DNA from: Acidobacteriota bacterium
GTDB lineage: Bacteria; Acidobacteriota; UBA890; WLXD01
Length of the DNA stretch: 64,000 bases
Direction: 5' to 3'
Assembly: GCA_029263295.1 (NCBI GenBank)
Contig: JAJCXT010000108.1
Location: forward strand, 2,724-66,723
This document shows, in pieces, positions 36,116 to 44,563 of this stretch. Numbering within the stretch: the stretch's first letter is position 1; each line of letters begins with the position of its first letter. The position numbers were made by a program, and so were the translations under genes. A model generated the notes under the pieces. The model was given only the letters and a program-made list of their open reading frames with translations. It made no database searches and had not been told where the DNA came from.

Positions 36116-37504
36116 ATGGTGATGCGAACGGTCGTGGGCGCGGCGCTTGCCGGTGGGATCGCCCTGGTATCGGGCTTTGCCAAGCCGGCCCAGGACCCGC
36201 CCAATATCGTTCTGCTGTTCACCGACGACGCCGGTTATGCCGACTTCGGCTTCCAGGGAGGCTCGGATCACGCGACGCCGCACATCGATTCGCTCGCGGC
36301 GCAGGGTGTTCGCTTCAACCAGGCGTACGTGACGGCTTCGGTCTGCAGCCCTTCGCGCGCCGGTCTGCTGACGGGCCGGTATCAGCAGCGCTTCGGACAC
36401 GAGTACAACCTGCCTGGGCAGGATGACCCCGAGTTACCGGGATCACGACGCGGTCTACCGCTCGACCAGACAACGATTGCCGACGTGATGCGCCGCGCCG
36501 GTTACGCCACCGGCATCGTCGGCAAGTGGCACCTCGGGCGGCACCCGCGGTTCCGGCCTCTGCAGCGCGGCTTCGACGAGTTCTTCGGCATGGTTCGCGG
36601 GGGCAGCCCGTACCTCGCCGGGACCGCCACCGGCATCTTCGAGGGTGAAGACCCGGTCGCCGCGGATTCGCTCCCCTACCTGACCGACGCCTTCGGTGAT
36701 CGTGCGGTGCAATTCATCGAACAGCACCGCGACGAAGCGTTCTTCCTCTTCGTCTCGTTCAACGCCCCGCACACGCCGATGGAGCCACGACCCGGCGAGT
36801 TCGCTCAAGTGCGAGGATCGTTCGAGAGCGACGAGCGCGCGGCCAACGTGGCGATGACCCGTACGGTCGACGACAACGTCGGCAAGGTCCTCGCCGCACT
36901 CGACGAACACGGGTTGACCGAGAACACGCTGGTCATCTTCACCAACGACAACGGTGGGGCGATGCCCTACAACGGCTCGCTCAACGCACCGCTCCGCGGC
37001 ACCAAGGGGACGGTCCTGGAAGGCGGCAATCGTGTCCCCATGAGCATCCGCTGGCCTGCCCGGCTGGAGGCGGGCAGCGCCTACGAGAATCCCGTGAGCA
37101 CGCTCGACTTCCTGCCCACGTTCGCGGCCGCGGCCGACGCCGACACGACCGGCCTCGACCTCGATGGCGTCGACCTATTGCCCTACCTCAGCGGCGACCG
37201 TGGCGAACGGCCACACGACGATCTCTACTGGAAGCTCAACTGGGGCGCCGCGATTCGCAGCGGCGACTGGAAGCTCGTGCGCACGCCGGCCGATGAAGTC
37301 TGGCTCTTCGACCTCGGCTCCGATCCGGGCGAACGCGACGATCTCAACCCCTCCGAGCCAGCGCGCGTGGCCGATCTGCGCGCCCGTCTGGCGCAGTGGG
37401 AAGCATCGTTGCCGCCCCCGATCTGGACCTCCGCCGCCATGTGGCGCGCGCACAGCCTGCTGCGCTACGACCAAACCACCGTCGACAGCTACCGCCGCCG
37501 CTGA
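36116..37504 (+). CDS. Sulfatase (arylsulfatase A family)
   Basis: PNIVLLFTDDAGY, CSPSRAGLLTGRY, GKWHLG, NDNGG, LRGTKGTVLEGG. Confidence 0.92.
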   Translation: MVMRTVVGAALAGGIALVSGFAKPAQDPPNIVLLFTDDAGYADFGFQGGSDHATPHIDSLAAQGVRFNQAYVTASVCSPSRAGLLTGRYQQRFGHEYNLPGQDDPELPGSRRGLPLDQTTIADVMRRAGYATGIVGKWHLGRHPRFRPLQRGFDEFFGMVRGGSPYLAGTATGIFEGEDPVAADSLPYLTDAFGDRAVQFIEQHRDEAFFLFVSFNAPHTPMEPRPGEFAQVRGSFESDERAANVAMTRTVDDNVGKVLAALDEHGLTENTLVIFTNDNGGAMPYNGSLNAPLRGTKGTVLEGGNRVPMSIRWPARLEAGSAYENPVSTLDFLPTFAAAADADTTGLDLDGVDLLPYLSGDRGERPHDDLYWKLNWGAAIRSGDWKLVRTPADEVWLFDLGSDPGERDDLNPSEPARVADLRARLAQWEASLPPPIWTSAAMWRAHSLLRYDQTTVDSYRRR

Positions 37505-37559
37505 TTGGGATCGCCTGCGGCCTCGCGCGCGGGCCTTGCCTGCGCCCTACGATACGCGA

Positions 37560-37946
37560 CTACCAGATGGTACGCACCGGATACTGCGCGATCTGACGGT
37601 CCGGGGTCACGATCGCGAGACCATGCACGACGGCCTGGCAGATCAGCATCCGATCGAAGGGATCGCGATGGATATCGGGGAGACGGCTCAAGTACAGCGT
37701 CGACTCCTCATCGAGCGCCAGCGGTTCGATACCGTGCTGTTCGCGAACGCCTGGCAGGAAGCGCTCGGGCACGTCCGGAAGATCCAGCCGGCCCAGTCTG
37801 CGCTTGAGCGTGATCTCCCACGCGGACACGGAACTCAGGAGCACGTCGTTCGCTGGGTCGCATATCTGATCGCGGATCTCTTCGGAGATCTCGCTCGCTC
37901 CCGTGACCGTCCAGATGAACGAACAGGTGTCGAGCAGCAGTTTCAT
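37560..37946 (-). CDS. vapC: PIN-domain (VapC) toxin
   Basis: LLLDTCSFIW, SSVSAWEITLK, HRDPFDRMLICQA. Confidence 0.92.
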   Translation of the reverse strand: MKLLLDTCSFIWTVTGASEISEEIRDQICDPANDVLLSSVSAWEITLKRRLGRLDLPDVPERFLPGVREQHGIEPLALDEESTLYLSRLPDIHRDPFDRMLICQAVVHGLAIVTPDRQIAQYPVRTIW

Positions 37947-38182
37947 TCCTTACCCTCGAACGCATCGAGAATGTCGTCCGGCAGAGGCTCGAAGAACGCC
38001 TCCGTGAGCTCGAACTTTCCCTTCGCGAGTCCGAAGGGCCGCGGCTCTGTGCGGCGAGGGATGCCGCGGATCTCGGCGATCGGGACGTTGCGGCGGCAGA
38101 GCAGGATGACCTCGCCTTGCTCGACCATCGTCAGGTAGCGCGACAGGTGTGTCTTCGCTTCGTGCACGTTCAATCGAATCAT
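37943..38182 (-). CDS. Phd/YefM family antitoxin
   Basis: MIRLNVHEAKTHLSRYLTMVEQGEVILLCRRNVPIAEI; ATGA overlap with toxin. Confidence 0.9.
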   Translation of the reverse strand: MIRLNVHEAKTHLSRYLTMVEQGEVILLCRRNVPIAEIRGIPRRTEPRPFGLAKGKFELTEAFFEPLPDDILDAFEGKE

Positions 38183-38192
38183 GATTCGATTG
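38171..38192. promoter_or_regulatory. Perfect 22-bp palindrome centred on the antitoxin start codon
   Basis: CAATCGAATCATGATTCGATTG. Confidence 0.7.
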
Positions 38193-38318
38193 TGAACTAA
38201 CTTTTGACTCAAGTCGAACCTCGAGACAAGCGAATGTGTCGGTTCATCTCAGTTAGACGGCCCGCATGAGTCGACTTCGGACCCTCCTCGGCGGAGCCGC
38301 ATGTCCTCTCAGAGAGAG

Positions 38319-39197
38319 CTAGTCCGGAACCACTGCGAAGAGGCGAACCTGGCCGCCGGAACCGTCTTTGATCTTGATCGGCGCGACGATCAGATAGGCC
38401 CCGATGGCGGGGATCTGGTGCAGGTTCGCGACGTTCTCGAGGTGGTACTTGCCGTGGCCGTTGACTACGCGGTGCGCACCGAAGCCCGCGACAGCCGCAT
38501 CGACACTCAACGTATCGATGCCGATCCCACGGATGTTGCGTCCCTCGACCAGTAGGCGCCCGGCCCCCTCCGAGAACCCCGGAAAGTGCATACGCCCCTC
38601 ATCGTCCTGGTTCTTGTAGGCGTCAAAATCGTCCCACTTGAGACTCCAGCCGGTGTACATGAGCACCACTGCGCCCTGCGGCAAGGTTCCGTGCGTGGCT
38701 TCCCAGGTCTGGATGTCTTCCACGCTCAACTGATAGTCCGGATCCGCCGCGCACTGGGCCGAGGCGTCGATCAGAGCGATAGGGCCGAACAGGTCCTGCG
38801 CCGTAAGGTCGTCGACGTCGGGCTGGCCGTCGACCGAATGAATCGGCGCGTCGATGTGGGTGCCGTGATGCTCGGGGGTGGAATAGGCACCCATCGAGAC
38901 GGCGCCGGAGTCGTGCGCCGAGCGCACCTCGTAGGAAAACGGGTTGCCGGAATCGCTCGGCCAGTGGGGGCCTTCGGGGCTGAGCGCGTGCGTCAGGTCG
39001 ATCACCGGCAAGGTGCCGTCGAACAGCTGCTGGAGGCGATCCGCCCCTGCCGCGTGATCGGTTGGCGGGGCCGCGTCATCTTGCGGGGCCGTGTTGCACC
39101 CGGACGCGAGGACGAGAACCGCAACCGTGATCAGCTGCAGCAGGCGGGCGGCATCGGGAATGGGGACGGCGCGCGTCGGTGGCGTTGACGAAGTCAT
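38319..39197 (-). CDS. Cyclase family (kynurenine formamidase-like) protein, probable lipoprotein
   Basis: EHHGTHIDAPIH, HFPGFS, GIGIDTLSVD, YHLENVANL; lipobox LASGC. Confidence 0.87.
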   Translation of the reverse strand: MTSSTPPTRAVPIPDAARLLQLITVAVLVLASGCNTAPQDDAAPPTDHAAGADRLQQLFDGTLPVIDLTHALSPEGPHWPSDSGNPFSYEVRSAHDSGAVSMGAYSTPEHHGTHIDAPIHSVDGQPDVDDLTAQDLFGPIALIDASAQCAADPDYQLSVEDIQTWEATHGTLPQGAVVLMYTGWSLKWDDFDAYKNQDDEGRMHFPGFSEGAGRLLVEGRNIRGIGIDTLSVDAAVAGFGAHRVVNGHGKYHLENVANLHQIPAIGAYLIVAPIKIKDGSGGQVRLFAVVPD

Positions 39198-39306
39198 CAC
39201 AGGGGCTCCTTTTCCGCTCACCCCGGCTGGGGCGAGCTGATCTCGATCAGCGGCACAGGTGTCGAAACTGTCTTGTTCCGTTCCGGGTGCGCTGCTACGT
39301 TACACG

Positions 39307-39430
39307 CACTCATCGAGACCGGCTGAGGGAAAGGCCCTTTGACGTCGGGGCAACCTACAAGCAGCTACCTGGCTGTGCGCAAGGTGCCAACTCCTACGGA
39401 GGGCTTCGGCTCTCCGACAGATGAGGGTGT
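39307..39430 (+). ncRNA. SAM-I (S-box) riboswitch
   Basis: CTCATCGAGA...GAGGGAAAGGCCC..TGA...GGCAACC...AGGTGCCAACTCC...AGATGAG, the SAM-I consensus order, upstream of Met genes. Confidence 0.92.
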
Positions 39431-39517
39431 CAGACGCGCACTCGCTGGTAACAGCACCGCGCGCCTCGACTCTCCAGGAGTTGGTACCTGACCAACTCGC
39501 AACAAGGAGAGAACGAG

Positions 39518-41725
39518 ATGACACTGCAACAGGCTCCAGCCTCCACCCCGAACGACGGCTCTGCTGACGCTTTTTGTGCGAGCGGCTCATCGCCGACCCG
39601 CGCTGAGTCGCTGCCCGAAGCCCGGCGCGGCAGCGTTGAACTCCGCTCCACCCACCTCACAAACCCCGCCGGCAAAGCGCCACACGTCGCCTACGAAATC
39701 GCTGGCAATCCCACTGGAAGACTCGTTGTCGTCCTCGGCGGCATCTCCGCCAATCGACACGTCGTGGCCAACCGCGCCGATGAAACTGCCGGGTGGTGGC
39801 AGCAGATCGTCGGCCCCGGCCAGACCATCGACACGAACACGTGTCGGGTCCTCGCCCTCGACTACATCGGGGGTCCCACCGTACCGATAGCACCCGGGCA
39901 GTCGGTTTCCACGCACGATCAGGCTGCCGCGCTGCTGTGCGTTCTCGATCATCTGAATCTTGGTCGTGTCGACGATTTCGTCGGCTCCTCGTATGGCGGC
40001 ATGGTCGCACTGGCTTTCGCCGAGCGCCACGCTGACCGCGTGGACCACCTGATCCTCGTCGGCGCCGCCCATCGTTCCCACCCGATGGCCACGGCGTGGC
40101 GCGCGCTGCAGCGCAACATCGTTCGGCTCGGTGTGGAAGGCGACGACGCTAAGCGCGGCCTGCAGCTGGCGCGCGGACTGGCGATGACCACGTACCGGAG
40201 CGCGGCGGAGTTCGACGAGCGCTTCGCTACTCGCAACGGTCCGGCGTTCCCGGTCGAGTCTTATCTCGATGCCCGCGGCAGTACCTTTGCCGACACGTTC
40301 CCTCCTGACGCTTTCGCTACGCTCTCCGAGTCGATCGATCGCCACGGCGTGGATCCGGCGAGCGTTGCGGTGCCGACCGGTCTGATCGCCGTCGACTCCG
40401 ACGCCCTGGTACCACCTTGGCTCGTGGAGGAACTGCGCGACGGTCTCGGCGGGCCGGTACGACTGCGGCACGTCGAGTCGAAGGTCGGACACGATGCCTT
40501 CCTGGCCGACCACGAACCGATCGGGCGCGCCATCACCGAGTTTCTCTCCGCCCCGAACGACGGCCCGACCTCGTCGCCGGTAACCCGAACCGTGCGCGCC
40601 GCGGTCGGAACCGACCAGGAGCACGGCGCAGTCATGCCGCCGTTGTACCTGTCGTCGAACTACACCTTCGCCGGCCTTGGCGTGAAGCGACAACACGACT
40701 ACAGCCGCACATCCAACCCGACGCGTGGCCATCTCGCCGACGCGATCGCCGATCTCGAAGGGGCCGCCGGTGCGGCGGTGACCTCATCGGGAATGTCGGC
40801 GGTGGCGCTGGTATTGCAGCTGCTCGAGCCCGATGACCTGGTGGTGATGACCCACGACTGCTACGGCGGCACACACCGGCTGGCGTCACGTCTGGCGAAA
40901 CGCGGCGCCTTCAGGCTCGCGTACGCCGACCTCACCGACGAGGCTGGCGTCACGGCCGCCGCGGCCCAGAACCCGCGTATGATCTGGGTCGAGACGCCGA
41001 GCAATCCACTGCTGCGGATCACCGACCTTGCGGCCGTCGCTCGCGCCTCGCGGGCCTGCGGAGCGCTCCTCGCTGTGGACAACACGTTTCTGTCACCTGC
41101 CCTCCAACGTCCAATCGAGCACGGCGCCGATCTCGTCGTGCATTCGACGACGAAGTTCATCAACGGTCACAGCGACGTCGTGGGTGGAGCGGTCGCCGCG
41201 GCGACGCCGGCTCTCCTCGAGGAGGTCGCGTGGTGGGCCAATGCGCTCGGTCTGTGCGGTAGTCCGTTCGACAGTTATCTGACCCTGCGGGGGCTGCGAA
41301 CTCTGGACGCTCGCGTTCGGATTCACCAGGACAATGCCAGGGCTATCGCCGATGCCTTGGCCGGCCACCCGGCCGTGGAAGCTGTCTTCTATCCTGGCCT
41401 CGCCGACCACCCCGGCTACACGACGGCGTGCCGCCAGCAGGAAGGGCCGGGAAGCTTGCTGAGCTTCGAGCTGGCCGGCGGGCAGGCGGCTGTGGCGGCC
41501 TTCGTGGACGGTCTGCGGCACTTCGCCCTCGCCGAGTCGCTCGGCGGCGTAGAGAGCCTGATTGCGCAGCCAACCACAATGACCCACGCGGCGATGGATC
41601 CGGCAGCCCGGGCAGCGGCGGGAATCCACGACAGCCTGCTCCGCTTGTCGGTCGGTATTGAAGATCCCGCCGATCTGCTGACCGACATCCAGCGCGGTCT
41701 CGACCGTGCGGGACGCGTCCGATGA
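39518..41725 (+). CDS. metX-metB: Fusion of homoserine O-acyltransferase (MetX type) and cystathionine gamma-synthase (MetB type)
   Basis: N-part GGISA, GWW, GSSYGGM, GHDAFL; C-part YSRTSNPTR, SSGMSA, ETPSNP, VDNTF, HSTTKFINGHSDV, LAESLGGVESL; no stop at the junction. Confidence 0.88.
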   Translation: MTLQQAPASTPNDGSADAFCASGSSPTRAESLPEARRGSVELRSTHLTNPAGKAPHVAYEIAGNPTGRLVVVLGGISANRHVVANRADETAGWWQQIVGPGQTIDTNTCRVLALDYIGGPTVPIAPGQSVSTHDQAAALLCVLDHLNLGRVDDFVGSSYGGMVALAFAERHADRVDHLILVGAAHRSHPMATAWRALQRNIVRLGVEGDDAKRGLQLARGLAMTTYRSAAEFDERFATRNGPAFPVESYLDARGSTFADTFPPDAFATLSESIDRHGVDPASVAVPTGLIAVDSDALVPPWLVEELRDGLGGPVRLRHVESKVGHDAFLADHEPIGRAITEFLSAPNDGPTSSPVTRTVRAAVGTDQEHGAVMPPLYLSSNYTFAGLGVKRQHDYSRTSNPTRGHLADAIADLEGAAGAAVTSSGMSAVALVLQLLEPDDLVVMTHDCYGGTHRLASRLAKRGAFRLAYADLTDEAGVTAAAAQNPRMIWVETPSNPLLRITDLAAVARASRACGALLAVDNTFLSPALQRPIEHGADLVVHSTTKFINGHSDVVGGAVAAATPALLEEVAWWANALGLCGSPFDSYLTLRGLRTLDARVRIHQDNARAIADALAGHPAVEAVFYPGLADHPGYTTACRQQEGPGSLLSFELAGGQAAVAAFVDGLRHFALAESLGGVESLIAQPTTMTHAAMDPAARAAAGIHDSLLRLSVGIEDPADLLTDIQRGLDRAGRVR

Positions 41726-42492
41726 ACGCCCCGAACAACGGTCGCGCGGCTCTTGTCGTTCTGAAGTTCGGAAGTTCCGTGCTCGAGGGAGCAGCGGGCT
41801 TCCGCCGCGCCGTCGAGCAGATCCACGCCGAACTGGCGAGCGGTAGCAAGGTCTGCGCGGTGGTCTCGGCAACACCGGGGACAACGAACGACCTGTGGCG
41901 TTCGGCGCACGAACTCGCCCTCGACCCGCAGCCGGGTCTCCTCGGGGCCTTGATGGCGACAGGCGAACACGCCTCGGTTGGGCTACTCAGCATCGCGCTC
42001 GTCGCGAGAGGCGCGGTGGTAACTCCGCTAACGGCGGCCGAACTCGATCTGCGCACCGCGGGGCCGTCGCTCGACGCCCACCCGGTGGCCCTCGATTCCG
42101 GTGCGTTGCGAGCGGCGTTCGAGACGGCAGACGTCATCGTCGTTCCCGGCTTCGTTGGGCGCGATGCAACCGGCTCGACGAGTCTTCTCGGCCGCGGCGG
42201 CTCCGACCTCACCGCGCTGTTCATCAGCCGCGAGCTCGGCGCCGACTGCTGCCTGGTGAAGGACGTTGACGGACTCTACGACGGCGATCCGAACTGCCCG
42301 CGCAACCCGGCGCAACGGCGTTACGTGCGGGCGTGCTGGGACGAACTCGCCCGGGTGGGCGACGTCGTGGTGCAACCGAAGGCTGTGCGCTTCGCGCGGC
42401 AACATGCCATCCGGTTTCGCATCGCGGCAGTAGGCAGGCGAGGCACCGAGATCGGGCCTGGCCCCAACGTGCTCGAGCGGGTGGCGTCATGA
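41722..42492 (+). CDS. Aspartokinase-like amino-acid kinase, catalytic domain only
   Basis: VVLKFGSSVL, VVSA, LMATGE, VVPGFVG, LGRGGSDLTA, KDVDGLYDGDP; 256 aa, no ACT domains. Confidence 0.82.
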   Translation: MNAPNNGRAALVVLKFGSSVLEGAAGFRRAVEQIHAELASGSKVCAVVSATPGTTNDLWRSAHELALDPQPGLLGALMATGEHASVGLLSIALVARGAVVTPLTAAELDLRTAGPSLDAHPVALDSGALRAAFETADVIVVPGFVGRDATGSTSLLGRGGSDLTALFISRELGADCCLVKDVDGLYDGDPNCPRNPAQRRYVRACWDELARVGDVVVQPKAVRFARQHAIRFRIAAVGRRGTEIGPGPNVLERVAS

Positions 42493-43589
42493 GGGCACCC
42501 GGCGCAACCAGGTCGAGCCAGACCCAGGGCGCCGACTCGATGGCGCGCACGCCTGGACAACCCGAGAGCGCCGGAGTGGCGCTGCTGGGGGCCACTGGTG
42601 TTGTCGGCCAGAACATCGTTCGCCTGCTACGCGACCACCCGTTTCTCCGGCTCGACGAGGTAGTGGCCTCCCGGGCGTCGGCCGGGCAAGCGTACGGCGA
42701 TGCTGTCGGGAGCGGGGCCGGCGATCCTGCGGCATCGTTGCGGCTCAAGGTTCCCGGCGACCGCCTGGCCTCACCCATTGTTCTCTCAGCGCTGCCCGGA
42801 GGCGTGGCGCTGGAACTCGAGCCCGAATACGCGCGACGCGGGCACCTCGTGTGCTCGAACGCCTCGGCCTTCCGCGACGATCCGCGCGTGCCGTTGCTGG
42901 TGCCCGAGATCAACGCCCAGGCGCTGTCACTGCTCGACGCCCAGGAGTGGTCTGGCGGTCTGGTCGCGAACCCGAACTGCGTCGTCTCGGGACTCAGTCT
43001 GGCCCTGGCGCCGCTGCACGCTCGGCACGGAATCGAGGCGGTCACCATCGTCACGATGCAGGCGCTTTCCGGCGCCGGGCGGCGCGGACTGAGCGCGTGG
43101 GAAACGAACGCCAACGTGATTCCGAACATCGCCGGCGAGGCCGAGAAGATCCCGGTGGAGATCCGCAAGATCCTCGGCGCGGACTTTCCCGTGTCGGTAC
43201 AGGTGAACCGCGTACCCGTACTCGACGGCCACCTGGCTTCGGTGTTCGTGAAACTGCAGGACGGCGCCAAGCTGGAAACGACCAAGGCAACCCTGCGCGA
43301 GTTCGAGTCCCCCGAGCACGTCGTTTGCCTGCCGACCGCACCCAGCGCTCCGCTCCGATTGCTCGATGCTCCCGATCGTCCGCAGCCACGGATCGATCTC
43401 GAAGCTGGTGCAGGAATGTCGGTAAGCGTTGGGAGCTTCGCTGCCGACCCCGTCTACGACGCCTGCTTCACCGTGTTGGTGCACAACCTGGTGCGCGGCG
43501 CCGCCGGTGCCTGCGTGCTGAACGCGGAGCTCGCCGTCGCCGCCGACGGGTGCAGGAGACCTCGGACCTGCGTGGTGAGCTTGGCCTGA
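42489..43589 (+). CDS. asd: Aspartate-semialdehyde dehydrogenase (archaeal/eukaryote-like type)
   Basis: LLGATGVVGQ..LL.DHP, SNASAFR, VPEIN, ANPNC, MQALSGAG, RVPVLDGH, HNLVRGAAG. Confidence 0.9.
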   Translation: MRAPGATRSSQTQGADSMARTPGQPESAGVALLGATGVVGQNIVRLLRDHPFLRLDEVVASRASAGQAYGDAVGSGAGDPAASLRLKVPGDRLASPIVLSALPGGVALELEPEYARRGHLVCSNASAFRDDPRVPLLVPEINAQALSLLDAQEWSGGLVANPNCVVSGLSLALAPLHARHGIEAVTIVTMQALSGAGRRGLSAWETNANVIPNIAGEAEKIPVEIRKILGADFPVSVQVNRVPVLDGHLASVFVKLQDGAKLETTKATLREFESPEHVVCLPTAPSAPLRLLDAPDRPQPRIDLEAGAGMSVSVGSFAADPVYDACFTVLVHNLVRGAAGACVLNAELAVAADGCRRPRTCVVSLA

Positions 43590-44563
43590 CCCCCGAATAC
43601 GGGTCCAGATGTAGTCTCGCGATCTGGATCGCAACCGGCCCAGCCCGGCGTCTTTCGACCGAGATAGGGGCCTTGGAGGACTGCGACTTCCTCTTGACTA
43701 TCGGCCTTGAGGGTCTCGATAACGCGCGCATCCACCCAGTAGATGTCCACATTCTCACCATCGTCATCTATGCCTCTGTTGAAGAGAATGTACTTGCCGT
43801 CAGGGGTGACGCTCGCATAGGCATCCCATCTATCGGAATTGACATTGTCACCCATGTTGATGGCAGGGCCCCATGAGCCATCATCTTGTCGGAAACTGAT
43901 GTAAAGATCGGAGTCTCCGTATCCGCCTTCGCGCTCGCTATCCCAGATCAGATAGCTCTCGTCTGGCGCGATGAAGGGGTGGGCTGTCAATTTGCCTGCG
44001 TTGACCGCCGAGCCCATCACCTCTGGGGTCTGGCGTTCGCCGTTTTCGAGCGTTGATATGAGGATTCCGTCGTCGCTTCTATAGTCGTCAAAGACATAGG
44101 TGCCCCTCGCGGATGCCGACAGGCGCATGATACCCATGTCTTCCCGGTCAAACATGGGACCGAGGCTCTTGCGTTCTGACCATCCGTCGCCCACGCGGTC
44201 CTTATAACCTTCCGCCATATGCATGCGGTTGCCGTCGGGCGAAAACACAACTTCACCGCGCCGCGTGAATTCCGTGTATTTCTTCCAGACGTTGTCCTGC
44301 TGGCGGAAGCCGATAACTGTGGGGCGGGTGCGGTCCGCATCCGTGGTGAAGTAAAACTCCGTCATGCCAGGAGCGAACACGCCCTCAAGCTCCCACCCTT
44401 CTTTGGAGATGATGCCCGGTGCGAACGGTTCCGCCACCATGCCCGGTGGCTCTTGCCCCATATAGGGACCTACGAGGGCTGGAAACTCCTCTTGAAGAGA
44501 GTTGTTGCCACTCATGAACAGACCATGAAGCAGCAGGCCTGCGAACGTATAGATACGCGTCAT
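43454..44563 (-). CDS. Secreted PD40/beta-propeller protein with truncated second repeat; 3' end runs antisense into asd
   Basis: GPYMGQEPPG, HPFIAPDESYLIWDS, SDLYISF, ASVTPDGKYILF; second LQGPYLGRKTPG then unrelated sequence; visibly lower GC. Confidence 0.72.
   Translation of the reverse strand: MTRIYTFAGLLLHGLFMSGNNSLQEEFPALVGPYMGQEPPGMVAEPFAPGIISKEGWELEGVFAPGMTEFYFTTDADRTRPTVIGFRQQDNVWKKYTEFTRRGEVVFSPDGNRMHMAEGYKDRVGDGWSERKSLGPMFDREDMGIMRLSASARGTYVFDDYRSDDGILISTLENGERQTPEVMGSAVNAGKLTAHPFIAPDESYLIWDSEREGGYGDSDLYISFRQDDGSWGPAINMGDNVNSDRWDAYASVTPDGKYILFNRGIDDDGENVDIYWVDARVIETLKADSQEEVAVLQGPYLGRKTPGWAGCDPDRETTSGPVFGGQAKLTTQVRGLLHPSAATASSAFSTQAPAAPRTRLCTNTVKQAS

Follow-up and report, generated by a model that had tools for sequence, protein, structure and literature searches.

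A MetX-MetB fusion gene, probably encoding a bifunctional methionine-biosynthesis enzyme, downstream of a SAM-I riboswitch in an Acidobacteriota bacterium

We identified a gene encoding a fusion of the methionine biosynthesis proteins MetX and MetB in a 64,000-nucleotide stretch of DNA (hereafter the window) from an Acidobacteriota bacterium (assembly GCA_029263295.1, contig JAJCXT010000108.1, positions 2,724 to 66,723; lineage UBA890, WLXD01). The gene is preceded by an S-adenosylmethionine class I (SAM-I) riboswitch and followed by an aspartokinase-like gene and asd (Table 1). Its start codon, an ATG at position 39518, is placed six nucleotides 3' of a strong Shine-Dalgarno (SD) sequence, GGAGAG (39506–39511), and the G+C content is even along the gene at 63–69%, with no shift at the joint between the two halves. 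Judging from its sequence, the 735-amino acid (aa) chain is likely to be a genuine bifunctional enzyme of methionine biosynthesis, combining a homoserine O-succinyltransferase with a cystathionine gamma-synthase (CGS). The chemistry is ordinary and the architecture alone is unusual. The single-chain form is apparently uncharacterised, and we found no description of a MetX-MetB fusion in the literature searched, most subscription journals lying outside that search.

Table 1. Features of the fusion locus, numbered from the first nucleotide of the window
Feature	Position	Strand	Remarks
SAM-I riboswitch aptamer (RF00162)	39307..39427	+	76.4 bits vs gathering score 44.4; E = 3.5e-16; full model 1–108
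Expression platform	39428..39517	+	Anti-SD CUCUCC (39470–39475) pairs with SD GGAGAG (39506–39511); start-codon region paired; minimum free energy (MFE) and centroid folds
metX-metB fusion gene	39518..41725	+	735 codons and stop; one open reading frame, no internal stop
N-terminal peptide D17-A-F-C-A-S-G-S-S-P-T27	39566..39598	+	Within disordered residues 1–29
MetX domain	39605..40549	+	About residues 30–344; alpha/beta-hydrolase; triad S158, D295, H325; homoserine-binding R219, Y226, D326
Inter-domain linker APNDGPTSSP	40550..40579	+	Residues 345–354; unconserved; dip in model confidence
MetB domain	40580..41722	+	Residues 355–735; pyridoxal phosphate (PLP)-dependent CGS / O-succinylhomoserine (thiol)-lyase; PLP lysine K546
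Aspartokinase-like gene lacking the ACT domain	41722..42492	+	256 aa; ATG overlaps the fusion TGA (ATGA); Pfam AA_kinase 98.6 bits
asd, archaeal-type aspartate-semialdehyde dehydrogenase	42540..43589	+	TIGR00978 326.7 vs 301.2 bits; start ATG 42540 inferred; 47 nt after the kinase gene

Each half of the protein is recognised by a curated family model. Pfam places Abhydrolase_1 at residues 70–329 and Cys_Met_Meta_PP at residues 356–728 (429 bits). The N-terminal half exceeds the cut-off of NF006449, 'homoserine O-succinyltransferase MetX' (328.6 bits against 296), with residues 24–344 aligned to profile positions 17–338 of 344. The C-terminal half exceeds that of TIGR02080, cystathionine gamma-synthase (528.9 bits against 504.55, residues 355–729), and stays under the cut-off of the narrower Xanthomonas-type model NF006450 (552.8 against 730). 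An initial annotation had described a single 735-aa open reading frame in which a compact MetX with intact Ser and His motifs is joined by APNDGPTSSP to a complete PLP enzyme of the MetB type, and all parts of that description are borne out. The frame is uninterrupted, S158 (in GSSYGG), D295 and H325 (in GHD) are in place, both halves pass their family models, and the joint falls in a stretch of variable length and no conservation in alignments of fused homologues, where the predicted local distance difference test (pLDDT) score drops to 69 (residues 341–350).

The residues expected to carry out catalysis are preserved in both halves. In an alignment of 96 fused sequences, S158, D295, H325, R219, Y226 and D326 of the MetX half are invariant, as are K546, D521, R454, R709, Y395 and R397 of the MetB half, with Y449 nearly so. 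Because all of the catalytic and substrate-binding residues that we checked are invariant or nearly so, both halves are under selection. Aligned to Escherichia coli CGS (1CS1), Y395, R397, Y449, R454, D521, K546 and R709 correspond to Y46, R48, Y101, R106, D173, K198 and R361, respectively, which have active-site roles in the E. coli structure. R219, D326 and Y226 align with the matching residues of solved MetX-family proteins; in CnMetXS of Cupriavidus necator the homoserine-binding residues are Arg238 and Asp367 (PMC13683966). An AlphaFold2 model built on the 96-sequence alignment has a mean pLDDT of 90.3, with both domains predicted confidently (90–99 in the MetX domain), residues 1–29 disordered, and a dip at the linker. 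The modelled MetB half superimposes on XometB with bound cystathionine (6LD9) at a template modelling (TM) score of 0.97 and a root-mean-square deviation of 1.2 Å, with 61% sequence identity, and the homologues of the MetX half in the PDB are MetX-family acyltransferases. A tblastn search of the bacterium's own genome, which is 78% complete, found no second MetX, aspartokinase (Ask) or aspartate-semialdehyde dehydrogenase (Asd).

The initial annotation had called for a search for fused homologues. We ran this search over 5.8 billion protein clusters and, counting at 90% identity, found at least 97 full-length fused clusters and eight partial ones from other assemblies. Linker length among the 97 ranges from 3 to 69 aa (median 23), and its sequence is unconserved. 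Both same-genus genomes share the in-frame fusion junction: G001, a metagenome-assembled genome (MAG) labelled 'Acidobacteria bacterium' at NCBI, and G002, whose protein is 85% identical. The same in-frame joint is present in G005, from another genus of the family. The linker is recognisably homologous (P..P.PS.VTR) among the fusion and these relatives (PNDGPTSSPVTR, PRDIPTPSRVTR, PHETPVPSPVTK). Clusters from other samples with 79–89% identity are also fused, two independent assemblies encode one and the same fused protein at 72% identity, and a second, separate fused protein is present on seven contigs. In RefSeq the fusion is found in two cultured Caulobacter strains (WP_163259936.1, from Caulobacter sp. 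17J65-9, and WP_187449713.1), both entries being named only 'cystathionine gamma-synthase'. The fusion is thus widespread and recurrent rather than confined to this genome. Uncultured Gemmatimonadota carry the architecture widely, and it is present as well in this lineage and in scattered Proteobacteria. At the G005 locus (L087), the joint is intact and the MetB half is broken after about 60 residues by approximately 1.3 kb before resuming in another frame, which may reflect an inserted mobile element or an error of assembly.

By tblastn frame analysis, we classified the 80 best loci among species-representative genomes as fused or unfused. In 53 of these, a separate metX lies directly upstream of metB, in agreement with the initial annotation, which expected them usually to be separate genes and often neighbours; metB stands alone in 26 loci, and a single locus is fused. 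The two-gene loci come mostly from Lysobacterales including Xanthomonas, Rhodanobacter, Steroidobacteraceae and Brevundimonas, with some from Gemmatimonadaceae. The junction was read in two unfused relatives. In the closest of these, G003, the metX stop and metB start codons overlap as ATGA, and in G029, from the same phylum, they are two nucleotides apart in TGAGATG. Because the stop and start codons overlap or nearly abut, a one-base change would suffice to fuse metX and metB.

A tree built from 208 MetB domains requires the fused and unfused states to have switched at least 19 times, and branches with good support force 13 of these changes; the counts do not separate gains from losses. Applied to a 67-row maximum-likelihood tree, the approximately unbiased (AU) test rejects monophyly of the fused proteins (log-likelihood difference 486, p = 1.7e-9). 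A grouping of this lineage with the large clade to which the fused proteins named Gemmatimonadales and Longimicrobiales belong is likewise rejected (p = 2.7e-5). Since at least 13 state changes are needed and the test rejects a single origin, these comparisons point to a fusion that is recurrent, easy to make and of several origins, and repeated fusion is the simpler reading because coupled but separate genes are the widespread condition. Viewed at 50% identity, the module contains further fusions, namely MetB-Hom, Hom-MetB and Hom-MetX (Hom being homoserine dehydrogenase), tandem PF01053 domains, and MetB joined to a class I/II aminotransferase (entries P0127, P0196, P0258, P0130/P0132/P0134 and P0193). 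The aminotransferase is possibly a beta-lyase of the PatB/MalY type.

A different derivative of the fusion is found at locus L083 of G004, which belongs to another genus of the same family. There, a 436-aa MetB (P0096) keeps the N-terminal peptide, the linker and the last approximately 20 MetX residues (LAD..G..LSELL) without the MetX core, and a SAM-I riboswitch still lies in front. P0096 thus derives from a fused ancestor that lost the MetX core by a deletion in frame.

The MFE structure of the aptamer upstream of the fusion reproduces the P1–P4 fold of SAM-I aptamers (z = -4.7). The platform that follows is predicted to act on translation, with an anti-SD hairpin and no terminator. A scan of positions 39150–43900 found no terminator-like site on the + strand and likewise no sigma-70-like promoter, although such a scan is uninformative for this phylum. 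A SAM-I riboswitch precedes the metX/metB module in 11 of the 16 related loci tested. In three loci of Gemmatimonadaceae/Gemmatimonadales (L021, L054 and L059) a SAM-II riboswitch (RF00521), scoring just over the gathering threshold, takes the place of SAM-I; here a conserved metX-metB operon has exchanged one class of riboswitch for another.

The 256-aa kinase encoded directly after the fusion matches the catalytic half alone of aspartate kinase models, with every score under the cut-off, and hom, which encodes homoserine dehydrogenase, sits on another contig. The order fusion-ask-asd recurs in the genus and in the 72%-identical metagenomic relative, and the unfused G003 keeps the same gene order. 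In other fused relatives hom lies upstream or ask lies downstream, and Caulobacter sp. 17J65-9 carries a divergent Ask-Hom fusion (L099, 2844–4556). In each of the three genomes of the genus, two of them 92–95% complete, the kinase lacking the ACT domain is the only aspartokinase homologue that we found, so all aspartate-family synthesis in the genus may rest on a kinase that is repressed by SAM and insensitive to feedback. A canonical aspartokinase, in a frame of about 830 aa, is present in two other genera of the family. Further upstream in the window, positions 36116–39221 hold a sulfatase gene, a VapBC-like pair (37560–38212, - strand) and a cyclase-family gene between a Sortilin/BNR-repeat gene and the fusion. 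In the 72%-identical relative (L094/L095) the Sortilin/BNR-repeat gene is the immediate upstream neighbour of the fused gene, which suggests insertions in the window.

Taken as a bifunctional enzyme, the protein would most likely work in two consecutive steps. The MetX domain, through Ser158-Asp295-His325, would transfer succinate from succinyl-CoA to L-homoserine, and the MetB domain, with PLP on Lys546, would exchange the succinate of O-succinylhomoserine for cysteine and so yield cystathionine. The two activities are certainly tethered and made at a fixed 1:1 ratio, and the initial annotation suggested that such a fusion could channel O-acyl-homoserine. The ancestor would have been a translationally coupled metX-metB pair whose frames were merged by a small indel or the loss of a stop codon. 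As to expression, the SAM-I riboswitch is predicted to hide the ribosome-binding site. Because it heads an operon that contains the fusion, the aspartokinase lacking an ACT domain and asd, the stretch from aspartate to cystathionine, minus homoserine dehydrogenase, would answer to SAM.

The choice between succinyl and acetyl donors, which the initial annotation had considered unreadable by eye, can now be given a provisional answer in favour of succinyl. Bastard and colleagues reportedly defined the MetX specificity groups in 2017, with a succinyl-specifying arginine of group G3 at logo position 11. Some MetX-G3 succinyltransferases have Tyr after the catalytic Ser, Met having also been reported at that position, while MetX-G2 enzymes have Leu after the catalytic Ser and an Arg two residues past the catalytic Asp (PMC13683966). 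Here, Tyr159 directly follows Ser158, which fits G3, and the position two after the catalytic Asp is Leu297 rather than Arg, so that the protein does not belong with G2. Succinyl is provisionally favoured because NF006449 is passed, because of Tyr159, and because the partner is an O-succinylhomoserine-type enzyme that keeps Arg454 (Arg106 in E. coli).

Several observations weigh against the bifunctional, succinyl-dependent reading. The succinyl call is itself inferred from family scores and two residues. The structure nearest to the MetX half, 3VVL (5.5e-32), is presumably the serine O-acetyltransferase DcsE and not a homoserine enzyme. The AlphaFold2 model, of a single chain, has a predicted template modelling score of 0.67 and does not fix how the two active sites face each other. 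In G001 there is a frameshift further inside the MetB half, which could be an assembly error or decay. We found no enzyme assay for any fused member. Finally, in five genomes of one family (G000, the bacterium's own, to G004), no E. coli-type cystathionine beta-lyase (TIGR01324) scores over the cut-off, the best reaching 248 bits against 365.9.

This last result favours direct sulfhydrylation, in which the fusion is real and the MetB half acts mainly as an O-succinylhomoserine sulfhydrylase, taking sulfide to homocysteine with no need for a beta-lyase. In addition to the sub-threshold MetC of all five genomes, the four other PF01053 paralogues in the bacterium's own genome fail every NCBIfam cut-off, and a study of the C. 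necator enzyme concluded that a succinyltransferase of the MetX type can supply direct sulfurylation (PMC13683966). However, it is the CGS equivalog model that the MetB half passes, the sulfhydrylase models scoring far lower (313 bits on TIGR01325 against a cut-off of 510), and this half shares 61% identity with an enzyme whose crystal structure contains cystathionine. Beta-lyase activity could also come from other PF01053 paralogues, one of which (C94) reaches 436 bits on the Bacillus-type beta-lyase model, and the genome is merely 78% complete. We therefore consider direct sulfhydrylation unlikely, although it stays a live alternative because no E. coli-type beta-lyase in the five genomes and none of the four other PF01053 paralogues of this one passes a curated cut-off.

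A more elaborate form of the bifunctional enzyme would be a particle in which a MetB tetramer bears two MetX dimers, an assembly that would be geometrically possible. That such a particle channels O-succinylhomoserine, with the N-terminal DAFCASGSSPT peptide as its regulatory element, seems to us improbable. The peptide is found in 15 of 120 homologues, is unique within the bacterium's own genome, and is kept despite the loss of the MetX core in P0096. Because relatives encode the same residues with different synonymous codons, the peptide appears to be under selection at the protein level. In a channelling particle it might serve, for instance, as a tail sensitive to redox state or to a metabolite, or as a nascent-peptide signal with a loose resemblance to the control region at the N-terminus of plant cystathionine gamma-synthase. 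A cysteine-bearing N-terminus also occurs in related operons of Brevundimonas and Lysobacterales. We considered the DAFCASGSSPT-coding region as an RNA element or terminator, given the T-run in GCTTTTTGT, and rejected this possibility on the basis of the synonymous codon variation and of a change from F to Y in relatives.

It is also conceivable that the fusion is transcribed and translated and that one of its domains is catalytically dead or has become a regulatory or scaffolding module. The loss of the MetX core in P0096, which leaves MetB alone in a sister genus, lends this some weight, since it indicates that the MetX half is dispensable in some genomes. However, the preserved MetX triad, homoserine-binding residues and MetB active site, both here and in the 96 fused homologues, and the lack of any other MetX homologue in tblastn of this genome make such a relic very improbable. 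Least credible of all is an assembly or sequencing artefact in which a one-nucleotide error in a MAG merged two truly separate genes: such an error could mimic the fusion because the metX and metB frames of the closest unfused relative are only 1 nt apart, and the source genome is a 122-contig draft, but the shared junction and homologous linker in G001, G002 and G005, the fused clusters from other samples, the identical protein from two independent assemblies and the 97 fused clusters overall, isolate genomes among them, essentially exclude it on comparative grounds.

The bifunctional enzyme and its operon resemble a system in Xanthomonas campestris, where SAM-I(Xcc) precedes XC1251 (a MetX-type homoserine O-succinyltransferase), XC1252 (MetB/CGS) and XC1253 (hom), and where the operon is essential for methionine synthesis and SAM-I control is mainly translational (PMC7270179). 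In both cases a SAM-I aptamer is combined with an anti-SD platform that lacks a terminator, and metX comes before metB. The proteins belong to the same subfamilies as those of Xanthomonas, a short MetX (approximately 44% identity) and the corresponding MetB (approximately 62%). In contrast to X. campestris, metX and metB form one reading frame here, and they are followed by the aspartokinase lacking an ACT domain and asd rather than by hom. The MetB half is like XometB of X. oryzae (6LD7/6LD9) and E. coli MetB (1CS1), with identities of 61% and 52% and TM scores of 0.97 and 0.95, respectively. Those enzymes, however, are stand-alone proteins of about 390–410 aa, whereas here a 354-residue N-terminal extension carries MetX. 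With MetX-G2/G3 enzymes, including CnMetXS, the MetX half shares the alpha/beta-hydrolase fold, the Ser-Asp-His triad and the homoserine-binding Arg and Asp, but it differs from classical MetX in its shorter length and in being joined to MetB. A comparable case with a different pair of enzymes is E. coli MetL, a fusion of aspartokinase II and homoserine dehydrogenase II. In both, enzymes for consecutive steps are joined in an expression-controlled branch dedicated to methionine.

Because database entries name the second half only, as 'cystathionine gamma-synthase', metabolic reconstructions will miss homoserine acylation in organisms that carry the fusion. The fusion also provides a natural test of whether tethering gives kinetic channelling or merely fixed stoichiometry, a question that bears on methionine production strains engineered with metX or metA together with metB or metY. 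Finally, the overlapping stop and start codons, the 13 or more state switches and the other fusions within the same module show how neighbouring genes of an operon become multidomain proteins.

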